Shown here: in pieces, positions 12,722 to 20,298 of the stretch
How positions within the stretch are numbered: the first letter of the stretch is position 1
How the letters are laid out: the number at the start of each line of letters is the position of its first letter
Translations under genes and position numbers: made by a program
Virus record (IMG/VR): IMGVR_UViG_3300037722_000380
Coordinates: 1-27,378 of that record
Length of the DNA stretch: 27,378 bases
Reading direction: 5' to 3' (one strand)
Source of the DNA: a virus
The notes under the pieces: generated by a model
The model's input: the letters and a program-made list of their open reading frames with translations, nothing else
Database searches by the model: none
What the model was told of the DNA's origin: nothing

Positions 12722-13072
12722 ATGGCCCACACCGCTGAAAATCAAGATTTCGACATCTATCAGGGCGATGATAACATTCCGGTTCAATTCACCGTTATTG
12801 ACGATCAAGGAACACCTGTGGATGTTTCTGCGGCTCAATTCGTATGGGCATTTGCGAAGACACTGCGCGCCGTGCCGATTGTTCAGAAGACGGAACTTGA
12901 CGATATTAATTTGTCAGACCCCGTGAATGGTGTGATCCAGATTGTGATGCGCGCAGCGGATACGGAAACTCGTCGTGGTGCTTTTCAGCATGAATTGGTG
13001 ATCACGTTGGACGGCCAGATTCTTACGATTGCGACCGGGGTGATGACAATCAAGGATAGCAGCATCAAATAA
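12722..13072 (+). CDS. BppU-N-like Ig-fold virion protein
   Basis: AAGGAG RBS; IYQGDD...FTVID..G.PVDVS...NG.I.I pattern. Confidence 0.65.
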   Translation: MAHTAENQDFDIYQGDDNIPVQFTVIDDQGTPVDVSAAQFVWAFAKTLRAVPIVQKTELDDINLSDPVNGVIQIVMRAADTETRRGAFQHELVITLDGQILTIATGVMTIKDSSIK

Positions 13073-13145
13073 TGTAGCCGCAAAATTTGCGGTGAATGCG
13101 GTCCCTTTCTCCGCACAGCATAAAAAACGTGAAAGAATACAGCAT

Positions 13146-13193
13146 AAAAAACTTGAAAGGGTCCGGCTGCTTTTTGCTACCGAACCCTTTCAA
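13146..13193 (-). terminator. intrinsic terminator of the tRNA/ncRNA operon
   Basis: Minus strand: TTGAAAGGGTTCGG...CCGGACCCTTTCAA followed by GTTTTTTA; G-U pair only on minus strand. Confidence 0.75.
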
Positions 13194-13194
13194 C

Positions 13195-13340
13195 GTTGCG
13201 CTGCACTGACTGTAACTACATTTCAACAGGTTGGGTGTTTCTATCGGCGTGTGTAACTTATGCGCACTAGTTACAGCATTGCTGGCAGCCCCTACTTGCG
13301 TAGTTCACCCTACCAGGGTCGGTTTTCGCCGCTGTTGAAT
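13195..13340 (-). ncRNA. candidate ~145-nt multi-stem/pseudoknotted RNA (element D), unclassified
   Basis: Stems TTCAACAG/CTGTTGAA, CGGCG/CGCCG, CTAC-GCAA-GTAG (GNRA), TGTAACT/AGTTACA, CTGTAACTA/TAGTTACAG. Confidence 0.55.
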
Positions 13341-13341
13341 T

Positions 13342-13416
13342 TGGAGCACCGAGAGGGAATTGAACCCCCATCCTCAGAGTTGCAGTCTGCCGCATGAGCC
13401 ATTCTGCCATCGGTGC
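13342..13416 (-). tRNA. tRNA-Cys(GCA)
   Basis: Cloverleaf GCACCGA...TCGGTGC-T-CCA; anticodon loop CT-GCA-AC; T-loop GTTCAATT; U73. Confidence 0.93.
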
Positions 13417-13418
13417 AA

Positions 13419-13481
13419 TTTTATAGCTCCTGTTCGCTCGCCCTACATCGAGCCTTATGGGGTTACAAATCGGAGCTATCT
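13419..13481 (-). ncRNA. structured inter-tRNA spacer (element C)
   Basis: ATAGCTCC/GGAGCTAT closing stem; GCTCG-ATGTAGGG-CGAGC hairpin. Confidence 0.45.
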
Positions 13482-13556
13482 TGGAGCATCCTGCCGGATT
13501 CGAACCGGCACCGCAGGGCTTGGAAGGCCCGCATCATCCCATTAGACCAAAGATGC
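13482..13556 (-). tRNA. tRNA-Gly(TCC)
   Basis: GCATCTT...AGGATGC-T-CCA; anticodon loop CT-TCC-AA; GTTCGAATC. Confidence 0.93.
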
Positions 13557-13559
13557 AAA

Positions 13560-13668
13560 GCTGTAAGCTCAAGAGGGCCGATTGACGGCGTGTCTCTTGA
13601 GCATTTAATAATCCGGTGGGTCGCAAGGAGACCCGCATCTCCCATGTAGCAACCCACCGGGCGGGTTT
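13560..13668 (-). ncRNA. structured inter-tRNA spacer (element B, two hairpins)
   Basis: CCGGTGGGTTGC/GCGACCCACCGG (12 bp, G-U on minus strand) with GGAGA/TCTCC; GCTCAAGAG/CTCTTGAGC with GCCG/CGGC. Confidence 0.5.
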
Positions 13669-13743
13669 TGGAGCGGCTGGCGGGATTCGAACCCGCGACC
13701 TCCTGCTTGGCAAGCAGATACTCTACCACTGAGCCACAACCGC
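13669..13743 (-). tRNA. tRNA-Gly(GCC)
   Basis: GCGGTTG...CAGCCGC-T-CCA; anticodon loop TT-GCC-AA; GTTCGAATC. Confidence 0.95.
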
Positions 13744-13840
13744 AAATCTGTGAGGGAACTTTAGATGTAGCCAGACCTGTAGGTCCAGATTTCCTGGCGT
13801 CCCTCAAACCAGTAGGCTATGACCGAAAGCGTCTATCTAG
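13744..13840 (-). ncRNA. structured 5' leader of the tRNA operon (element A)
   Basis: TGAGGGA/TCCCTCA and GCCAG/CTGGC stems. Confidence 0.4.
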
Positions 13841-13845
13841 TGCGC

Positions 13846-13886
13846 ACCATATCAGCATTGACATCTCTTGTCAAGAAGAATATTAT
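13846..13886. promoter_or_regulatory. overlapping divergent sigma70 promoters sharing the palindrome TTGACA-TCTCT-TGTCAA
   Basis: Plus: TTGACA(13858-63)-N17-TATTAT(13881-86); minus: TTGACA(13874-69)-N17-TATGGT(13851-46) with TG extension. Confidence 0.85.
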
Positions 13887-13951
13887 GGTAAATAACGATG
13901 ACACAGGCAGGGTGATCCTGCTGAAACCTAACCGCATATTGGAGGGATTCC

Positions 13952-14365
13952 ATGGCGGACGATAAAGTCGTTGATTTCCTGTCTGCACGGGATGCTCGGG
14001 AAACCGAGCAGGCTCCCGATCTCATTGAAAATCGCATCACTGGTTCTGCGAAGTGTCTCTCGTGTGCTCACGAGTGGATCGCTGTCGCGCACCCAGGACG
14101 TGCTATGTTCAATATCGAATGCCCGAAGTGCGGCACGTTTCGCGGTCAACTCGTTCAGCCGGTTATCCCTTCCGAAGAGACGATAGTTTTTCAACACAAG
14201 TGCGGGTGTTATTACTATGTACCCATGTGGGTAAAGAAATCCGGCTTCATTGCACAAGGAGACGCGGACCTTCGCCTAGTTAACACAGCGGGTACAGCCG
14301 CAGCCGAACTAGTGCTTCTCTGTGTCGGCTGCGGTGATTTTGTTTCATTTGATGAGATTGCGTGA
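13952..14365 (+). CDS. multi-Cys Zn-ribbon protein
   Basis: CLSC, CPKC, HKCGC, CVGC; GGAGG RBS; coupled to terL. Confidence 0.8.
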   Translation: MADDKVVDFLSARDARETEQAPDLIENRITGSAKCLSCAHEWIAVAHPGRAMFNIECPKCGTFRGQLVQPVIPSEETIVFQHKCGCYYYVPMWVKKSGFIAQGDADLRLVNTAGTAAAELVLLCVGCGDFVSFDEIA

Positions 14366-15942
14366 TGAGTTTTGAGCCGATTATTTTAGAAGAGCGGACG
14401 GTTGCCACAGGTCGCGATGGTACGAAGATGATATGGGCTCGGGTTCTGACGGAGGAATTCGAAGAACGTTGGCAGCCTCGCCACTATGATTCACCAAATA
14501 ACCTAGACCGATATTATGTTCCAACATGGGCACCGTTGCCCGGCTCTCAATTTCTTTTTCTTCAGTGCCCCATTTTTGAAGCTCTGTACCACGGAACGCG
14601 CGGTCCCGGTAAGACGTTGACGCTAATCATGGACTTTGCAAAAGAAGTTGGCAAAGGTTATGGCTCTGCATGGCGTGGTATTCTATTTCGTAAAACATTC
14701 GGCGATCTTGACGACGTGGTTCGGAAAATTGAAGAGTGGTTCCCTCAGATTTATCCGGGGTTCCAATTTTTGAAATCGAAGGCTGAATATGCCGCCGTCT
14801 GGCCTACGGGTGAACGTCTGCTGCTGCGGCATATGAAAAATGAAGATGACTATCCCGAGTATCACGGCCATGAGTACCCATGGATCGGCTGGGAAGAGTT
14901 GGTGCAATGGGAGAACGACAAAGCATACAAGCTGATGATGTCGTGCTGTCGTCCACCCAGGCAGGGTGTACCGTGCCGCATTCGTGCAACGACAAACCCA
15001 TATGGTCCTGGTCATAACTGGATTAAGAAGCGGTTCAAACTCCCAGGTATGAATAGCCGGATTATCCGTGTTCCGGGCGAACTTCCGCGTGTTGCAATCC
15101 ATGGTAACTTGTCTGAAAATTTCGTCTTGTTACACGCACAACCGACATATCCTACGCAGATTCGCGAAGCCGCGACAAACCCGGCGCAGGCCGAAGCGTG
15201 GCTTGCCGGTTCTTGGGATGTAACTTCTGGTGGTATGATTGACGATCTGTGGGATGCGATAGTCCATGTGTTGCCGCCGATTCCGATTGGTAAGATACCT
15301 CGCGACTGGACTCTCACGCGGGCGTATGACCACGGCCAGTCGAGTCCGTTTGCGTGCGGCTGGTGGTTGGAATCAAACGGTGAGCCAATCGAGATTAACG
15401 GGCGGTTGATTGGGCGTGTGCGCGGCGATTTGATTCTATGGCAAGAGTGGTATGGAACTTCCGGAAATGATAATGAAGGTGTCCGTATGGCCGCTGCCAA
15501 AATCGGAGCGGGTATCCACGACCGCGAAGAAGATTGGAGTGTACGGGGTCCAAACTGGTGTCGCGTTATTGCCGGACCAGCCGATACTGAAATCTTTAAT
15601 AAGGAATCAAACCGTGACGGACGGTGCCCCGCCGATGATATGGCGGATGAAGGTGTGCCGTGGGAGCGCGCCGATAAGTCGGCGGGTTCTCGTAAGCGCG
15701 GATGGGAGATGTTGCGGACTTATCTATCCGGCGCTATTCCAAGCCCGGATGGGACGCGCGAAAAGTCGGGGTTGTTCGTCTGTTCAAATTGCGAATTCTG
15801 GATTAGTTTGTGTCCCCCGATGCCGCGCGATGACAAAGATTTAGATGAAGTCCCCGCTACTTATGAAGACCACTTGGCCGATATGACGCGGTATCGGTTG
15901 AATTGGCAGGTTCCCGGCATGTGGCGGCGGGGCTTCCGGTAA
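14365..15942 (+). CDS. terL: terminase large subunit
   Basis: Walker A GTRGPGKT, Walker B WIGWEEL, motif III ATTNP, C-terminal RNase H-like nuclease (AYDHG...EDHLADMTRY). Confidence 0.96.
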   Translation: MSFEPIILEERTVATGRDGTKMIWARVLTEEFEERWQPRHYDSPNNLDRYYVPTWAPLPGSQFLFLQCPIFEALYHGTRGPGKTLTLIMDFAKEVGKGYGSAWRGILFRKTFGDLDDVVRKIEEWFPQIYPGFQFLKSKAEYAAVWPTGERLLLRHMKNEDDYPEYHGHEYPWIGWEELVQWENDKAYKLMMSCCRPPRQGVPCRIRATTNPYGPGHNWIKKRFKLPGMNSRIIRVPGELPRVAIHGNLSENFVLLHAQPTYPTQIREAATNPAQAEAWLAGSWDVTSGGMIDDLWDAIVHVLPPIPIGKIPRDWTLTRAYDHGQSSPFACGWWLESNGEPIEINGRLIGRVRGDLILWQEWYGTSGNDNEGVRMAAAKIGAGIHDREEDWSVRGPNWCRVIAGPADTEIFNKESNRDGRCPADDMADEGVPWERADKSAGSRKRGWEMLRTYLSGAIPSPDGTREKSGLFVCSNCEFWISLCPPMPRDDKDLDEVPATYEDHLADMTRYRLNWQVPGMWRRGFR

Positions 15943-19201: not shown

Positions 19202-19281
19202 CAATTAAATCATGTTCTGTTCTACTCTAAGACAACTAGCTTCGTCGGCAGGGTGATCCTGTACGACTGACAATGGAGACG

Positions 19282-20156: not shown

Positions 20157-20298
20157 ATTCGTGAGTTTTACGGCGTGTCTTGTTTGACACGGGGTGATGG
20201 TTCTCGGCGGGTGATCCAAAGAGACCGATATAAGGCGACGTGATGTCGCGCCTCATGCCGGTATCGTGGACTTCGGAAGAGCCCAAGGAGGAATCATC

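Follow-up and report, generated by a model that had tools for sequence, protein, structure and literature searches.

Phage T4 makes RNAC and RNAD, two small RNAs that have been proven to be stable and to end in a tRNA-like way at the 3′ side. They are non-tRNA RNAs within a phage tRNA region (PMC3014915), and the locus described here has a similar layout, with non-tRNA segments lying likewise among phage tRNA genes; it differs from the T4 region in that it is a separate three-gene unit and runs on the strand opposite to the main tRNA array. The large RNAs GOLLD and ROOL (PMC12286853) are also encoded by phages, lie near or contain tRNAs and have a length (660–800+ nt) similar to that of the unit. 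Theta (minimal HDV-like) ribozymes (PMC10879173) are likewise structured elements found directly beside phage tRNA genes.

An earlier, sequence-only reading of the locus had described a non-coding operon in which three tRNAs alternate with four structured RNAs, named A to D in the direction of transcription, and had proposed either that the tRNAs act as punctuation releasing small RNAs or that the whole transcript folds as one RNA. The present analysis confirmed the operon and led us to reject the large-RNA proposal, while the release of small RNAs is plausible for the clade and unproven for this genome. For the analysed DNA this is largely a sobering outcome, since the locus is no new large RNA but a tRNA operon that is conserved while its hairpin spacers vary.

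A minus-strand operon of three tRNAs preceding the terminase gene

The analysed window (27,378 nucleotides) comprises the first 27 kb of a virus contig of 93,022 bases with end overlap, and the numbering of that contig is used throughout. The tRNA unit lies on the minus strand among the genes for terminase, portal and major head protein, between a converging plus-strand gene that ends at 13072 and a divergent gene that starts at 13952. The terminase large subunit gene (terL; 14362–15942, plus strand) served as a context marker for collecting relatives. A homologue search with the protein encoded upstream of TerL found none. The minus strand also carries replication genes (DNA polymerase A, Thy1) as well as those for an RNA ligase and a polynucleotide kinase, with the primase gene on the plus strand, and the orientation of the tRNA operon is that of the replication genes. 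Since the sequence of the unit was 100% identical between independent assemblies, it is not an assembly artefact. As had been claimed, the unit lacks a credible ORF: in an independent contig no gene was called across the region, and start codons preceded by an SD-like word opened only frames of 14–30 aa running into the tRNAs. The operon is predicted to be a stand-alone, sigma-70-type promoted unit of an uncultured siphovirus of roughly 93 kb.

A sigma-70-type promoter match with an extended −10 (10/12 plus the extended TG) was located at 13846–13874 on the minus strand, and transcription of the operon likely starts near 13839. An equivalent promoter was present 5′ of the first tRNA in most relatives. 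The −35 element of a divergent promoter match belonging to the packaging/late operon (13858–13886, plus strand) overlaps the −35 of the tRNA promoter, and such a back-to-back −35 pair was found in 15/26 loci. At the distal end, an intrinsic-terminator-like hairpin followed by U6 lies at 13146–13193 (minus strand). The hairpin itself (13193–13153), which a simple terminator scan missed because its stem is interrupted, folds at z −6.3 against dinucleotide shuffles and does so better on the minus than on the plus strand. The promoter match, the terminator and the three tRNAs were all recovered where the sequence-only reading had placed them. The 3′ end of the terminator is duplicated in tandem (21 nt; copies at 13115–13135 and 13139–13159), and two further hairpins beside the 13115–13159 duplication may terminate the converging plus-strand gene.

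On the late side of the intergenic region, hairpins with a GNGAU loop were observed at 13906–13952 (plus strand), and also at 19248–19262 and 20235–20249. At 15/26 loci (0.8 expected) the first late gene has hairpins of this kind in its leader, with stems that are varied yet paired, and they are probably a protein-binding operator for the late genes.

The three minus-strand tRNAs, each with an encoded CCA, are tRNA-Gly(GCC) (13669–13743; Rfam 72.7 bits), tRNA-Gly(TCC) (13482–13556; 54.6 bits) and tRNA-Cys(GCA) (13342–13416; 56.3 bits). All are canonical and score above the Rfam cut-off. Besides the CCA, all three have U at −1 and G at +1, that is, the normal processing signals and the features engaged by bacterial RNase P (PMC10465520). 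The phage has in addition a main array of about 33 tRNAs on the plus strand (43093–47125), with gaps mostly of 1–9 nt, in which no Gly or Cys tRNA was found. The relative G001 (74% TerL identity) is split in the same way, with a 32-tRNA main array devoid of Gly and Cys tRNAs and with the trio located upstream of TerL. The Gly tRNAs of another relative, which is more distant (56% TerL identity), lie within the main array. Because the main array has no Gly or Cys tRNA and the same split recurs in G001, the Gly-Gly-Cys trio is the missing part of a near-complete phage tRNA set. A shared U73-CCA end was considered as the reason for setting Gly and Cys tRNAs apart and was discarded, as main-array tRNAs for Thr and Lys have that end too.

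Folding of the four spacers

Spacer folding was scored as z against dinucleotide shuffles. Every spacer had been described as structured and bounded by closing stems; individual stems were indeed present in all four, though modest ones in A and D, and only B and C as a whole folded better than the shuffles. Leader A (13744–13838, minus strand, like all four spacers) has a bulged 7-bp closing stem (13806–13800 with 13757–13751; P 0.05–0.15) and an overall z of −0.7, no better than shuffles. Element B (z −5.9) turned out to be two separate hairpins and not one: B1 (13613–13660), with a 12-bp stem, a 5-nt bulge and a 7-bp inner stem, and B2 (13567–13602), with a 9-bp stem, a bulge and a 4-bp inner stem, the 12-bp and 9-bp stems both having a P of 0.01. 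Spacer C (13417–13481) folds at z −3.4, and its 8-bp closing stem (13479–13472 with 13430–13423), which joins both ends, was matched in 0/1000 shuffles. Trailer D (13195–13341), at z +0.1 again no better than shuffles, contains several short hairpins, an individual 8–9 bp stem with a P of 0.03, and two mutually exclusive long-range helices. The closing stem proposed for it (13339–13332 with 13229–13222) is predicted to form only while no more than the first 125 nt of D have been made; once D is complete its probability is 0.01 against 0.97 for an alternative 9-bp helix, and neither fold disturbs the terminator (P 0.98). By these folding models B and C are real hairpins, and of the four spacers B is the strongest candidate for a module that was inherited. 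The linkers between tRNAs and spacer stems are short (2–10 nt) and mostly A/U-rich, as had been noted, though not always so.

A search of the unit against Rfam, at the gathering score and also down to E 10, matched the tRNAs only, which agrees with the earlier failure to assign the spacers to any RNA family. In particular, no Rfam ribozyme model matched in the unit down to E 10, and a home-made HDV descriptor (nested double pseudoknot with catalytic C), run with no positive control, gave no hit there; a further difference from the theta ribozymes is that each tRNA here encodes its CCA and has ordinary signals for RNase P. A tRNA-like domain plus tag frame, as in tmRNA, was not found in the unit, and for Y RNA there was neither a Ro60/TROVE gene in the genome nor a YrlA-type match. 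No CCA-ended hairpin, T-loop or cloverleaf trace was detected in A–D. They differ from RNAC and RNAD of T4 in having no T-arm or CCA end, and a tRNA-like 3′ end is found only in a 34-nt module of relatives. Further copies of A–D elsewhere in the phage genome were not found.

The hexamer CUACAU occurs in A and B and its complement in C and D, with the copies in A and B predicted to be unpaired. Some hexamer (or its complement) was shared by all four spacers in 0.75% of shuffles (P 0.0075). CUACAU is depleted genome-wide and is present once in 10 kb of relatives' spacers. Being the one feature that links all four spacers, but chosen after the fact, it is given little weight here. Two longer complements, one of 10 nt linking the promoter with D and one of 12 nt linking B with D, were set aside, about 0.4 and 0.9 such matches being expected by chance.

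Conservation of the trio and turnover of the spacers in relatives

TerL and the head protein served to collect relatives. In 19 distinct ones the complete minus-strand trio was present upstream of TerL, and a further 6 had part of it. Apart from L027, these relatives fall into one TerL clade (support 100/99), which also includes a member without the trio (L102); L011 is missing from the tree, probably owing to an interruption of its TerL, and duplicate contigs were excluded. The tRNAs are ordered either Gly-Gly-Cys, as here, or Cys-Gly-Gly. Internal spacers of the relatives range from 1 to 498 nt, with 13/38 of them at 15 nt or less and both spacers that short in 4 relatives, and the leaders range from 1 to 160 nt. 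Even the sisters L016 and L019 have spacers of 115/50 and 9/4 nt, respectively. The tRNA set is conserved together with its position and promoter; the alternation with spacers is not. Hairpin-bearing spacers are common in this clade, where 12/26 internal spacers fold at z below −2, as does 1 of the 4 main-array spacers tested. Within the main array, the spacer at 44903–45060 is strongly folded (z −4.1).

Spacers A–D were compared by local alignment with 58 segments (12.4 kb) from relatives. This comparison did not bear out a conservation of the spacers: A, C and D gave no significant match among the 58 segments (family-wise P 0.15, 0.15 and 0.74, respectively), and B weakly resembled a single relative, L047 (family-wise P 0.03; position-specific P 0.003, in the same spacer). 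The 9-bp outer stem of B2 recurs in that spacer with two G-U changes and no two-sided change, and the resemblance is only suggestive of a shared element. An exact-pattern scan of IMG/VR for B2 gave no match, and when cultured phages were searched by blastn, matches were confined to the tRNAs of the unit. The nearest relatives are just 75–78% identical in TerL, so that fast-evolving functional RNAs could be missed; the nearest TerL of a cultured phage is 50–55% identical. Several oddities were seen among the tRNAs of relatives, namely a truncated tRNA-Cys in L105, a Met-type anticodon hairpin in a spacer of L001, and in L047 (1766–1990, minus strand) an atypical tRNA, missed by ARAGORN and Rfam, whose acceptor end is of the Gly type and whose anticodon arm is odd.

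When the spacers of relatives were compared all against all, recurring modules that move between slots were recovered. The slots hold clearly selected RNA modules, notably a covarying minihelix that was found in 9 loci beside tRNA-Cys or tRNA-Gly, always on the minus strand (L001:681–714; L023:609–642; L029:535–568 and 571–604, a tandem pair; L031:115–148; L035:311–344; L039:254–287; L189:2557–2590; L190:4344–4377; L295:450–483). It always measures 34 nt and consists of 13 bp, a four-base loop (GNRA in 9/10 copies) and a 4-nt tail (NCCA in 9/10). In an alignment of 8 sequences, 96% of cells pair and 9/13 pairs have changed on both sides, compared with 4.5 ± 1.2 in shuffles and 5 or fewer in slid controls, the structure having been derived from the same related sequences and the shuffle figure being no probability. 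The model recovered the unseen member in L295 at 42 bits (E 5e-7), and its background over 855 kb was a single weak hit. A generic scan for CCA hairpins barely exceeded shuffles (9 vs 5), and the case for the minihelix rests instead on its uniform length and covariation. It is built like the RNase P model hairpins such as pATSer-GAAA, with a long stem, a GNRA loop and an NCCA tail, and GAAA-capped hairpins are cleaved by E. coli RNase P RNA (PMC10465520); those hairpins are made in the laboratory, whereas a 13-bp stem is found in the natural module. An Rfam search with the minihelix gave no match. The module is limited to a subclade that excludes this phage, in whose genome it is absent, the best hit there (16.8 bits, compared with 42–51 for members) lying outside the unit. 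D showed a weak similarity to it (z 3.5), but the minihelix model gave D no score.

A second module is a multi-stem RNA of 80–100 nt with a GNRA hairpin, an invariant 7-nt loop and a 2x2 internal loop, which follows the last tRNA in 4 loci on the minus strand (L189:1795–1874; L190:3900–3995; L355:3569–3666; L035:1–74). It had no match in an Rfam search, and exact-pattern scans of IMG/VR revealed no minihelix or multi-stem loci beyond the known contigs. D was considered as a member and rejected: the nhmmer profile was negative in D, the partial likeness is by eye only, and a regular expression linking the two was tuned to include D and hence is no test. Also on the minus strand, a three-way junction with weak covariation was found in 3 loci (L017:4735–4799; L001:525–596; L021:7361–7425) and a short bulged hairpin in another set of 3 (L011:1493–1525; L024:2941–2973; L001:66–96). 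Other slots carry coding sequence. A small ORF of ~50 codons with its own ribosome-binding site is conserved in spacers of L029, L030, L047 and L189, and an HNH-like ORF (L190:4398–4805, minus strand; weak Pfam match, E 0.019) sits at the 3′ end of tRNA-Cys, its insertion coming with a duplication of the tRNA end. In the genome under study, none of the recurring modules of relatives was detected.

Possible roles of the spacers and of the tRNAs

The account that we favour, with moderate confidence, is that of an RNase P-processed tRNA operon in which the spacers are a fast-turnover cargo slot and A–D are the lineage-specific fillers of this genome. Its tRNAs, two for Gly (GCC and TCC) and one for Cys, supply what the main array misses. 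The operon would be read as a single transcript; host RNase P and 3′ trimming, acting as in established tRNA processing, would cut this precursor at each tRNA and free A–D as separate pieces, and this excision would occur whether the pieces are used or not. Self-folding inserts would be tolerated because cloverleaves and cut sites stay free, and occasionally one might be selected; across the clade some slots are empty, and others house small ORFs, an HNH-like gene, self-contained hairpins or conserved RNA modules of small size. A–D would then be fillers of this lineage. The earlier view of the tRNAs as punctuation is in this respect partly upheld: release of the spacers is mechanically expected, and at the level of the clade covarying modules do occupy the slots, whereas in this genome A, C and D show no detectable conservation and A and D fold no better than shuffles, two outcomes that the earlier reading had itself counted as refuting. 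What counts against mere filler is that B and C fold far above chance, because neutral filler needs no such folding; the same-slot likeness between B and L047, the hexamer present in all four spacers and the selected modules of relatives point in the same direction.

We regard it as possible, though tentatively so, that RNase P and 3′ trimming release some spacers (likeliest B1/B2 and C, perhaps D) as stable RNAs with a function, comparable to RNA C and D of T4. Such RNAs would be exchanged between phages as modules, and host defence proteins that bind RNA would meet them as decoys or ligands. The precedent of T4 (PMC3014915) argues for such a tRNA-punctuated cassette, as do the folding of B and C, the B2 outer stem in common with L047, and the presence in the same slots of clade-mates of selected modules, both the covarying minihelix with its independently found member and the multi-stem RNA after the last tRNA. 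Set against this, the genome contains no detected recurring module of the clade and no Ro60/TROVE partner gene, A–D have no CCA end on a stem, and B2 has no supporting two-sided change.

A broader version, which we consider unlikely, makes the operon a clade-wide expression platform from which tRNA processing would release exchangeable small RNAs early in infection. Among these, the 34-nt CCA minihelix would absorb defences that attack tRNA tails, e.g. toxSAS FaRel2 and Cas12a3, and B, C and D would be further cargo RNAs, possibly pairing via their complementary hexamers. The toxSAS FaRel2 is described as targeting tRNA-Gly and tRNA-Thr and attacking tRNA tails (bioRxiv 10.1101/2024.07.05.602228), and Cas12a3 as attacking tRNA tails (PMC12851939); by analogy with the substrates so described, the minihelix could act as a decoy against such enzymes. 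As a uniform, covarying CCA minihelix it is a natural version of the laboratory RNase P substrate, offers a simple test of phage acceptor-end decoys, and bears on the role of spacer RNAs such as RNAC and RNAD of T4.

It seems quite improbable to us that the spacers derive by decay from tRNA genes, from minihelices or from small mobile inserts, or that their action is confined to cis (through pausing, or as a switch between the folds of D by the terminator). Relatives do carry candidate remnants, such as the truncated tRNA-Cys of L105, the atypical Gly-acceptor tRNA of L047 and the HNH-like insertion with its duplicated tRNA end in L190, and D itself has two exclusive folds and is weakly minihelix-like; but A–D are free of any T-loop or cloverleaf trace, D is unscored by the minihelix model, and the terminator stays intact under both folds of D.

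Least probable is a ~700-nt transcript that folds as a whole into a GOLLD/ROOL-like RNA with embedded tRNAs and hexamer bulge-loop contacts from A/B to C/D: GOLLD linkers are able to hold tRNAs (PMC12286853) and the complementary hexamers, predicted to be unpaired in A and B, would suit such contacts, but the evidence argues strongly against it because tRNA order is permuted, spacers are missing or only 1–15 nt in many relatives, and inter-spacer pairing is no better than with foreign spacers (gain with tRNAs blocked −7.2 vs −8.9 ± 4.2 kcal/mol). The covariance models of GOLLD and ROOL likewise had no match in the unit, a conserved, covarying long-range core was not found across relatives, the linking hexamer was picked after the fact and is nearly absent from relatives' spacers, and all three tRNAs carry normal processing signals.

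As to the tRNAs, they are likely kept to replace host tRNAs lost to a tRNA-targeting defence, and the phage also encodes an RNA ligase and a polynucleotide kinase. The genes for the T4-type RNA ligase and the kinase (PNKP), recognised by domain matches, lie near each other at 65857–68406 on the minus strand, and the pair is consistent with tRNA repair; a gene for a CCA-adding enzyme was not found in the phage genome. A near-complete tRNA set together with RNA ligase and PNKP is shared with phage tRNA arrays that are described as counter-defence (PMC10264068, PMC11555353, PMC11464382). In contrast to those arrays, here exactly the Gly and Cys tRNAs are set apart, conservedly, in their own divergent unit, an arrangement of which literature searches found no description. 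Since a whole phage clade sets exactly these tRNAs aside behind a promoter of their own, it becomes testable when tRNA counter-defence acts and what it targets. The main array (43093–47125) in turn contains several irregular tRNAs, a LAGLIDADG gene (43567–43929) and an RNase H-like gene.
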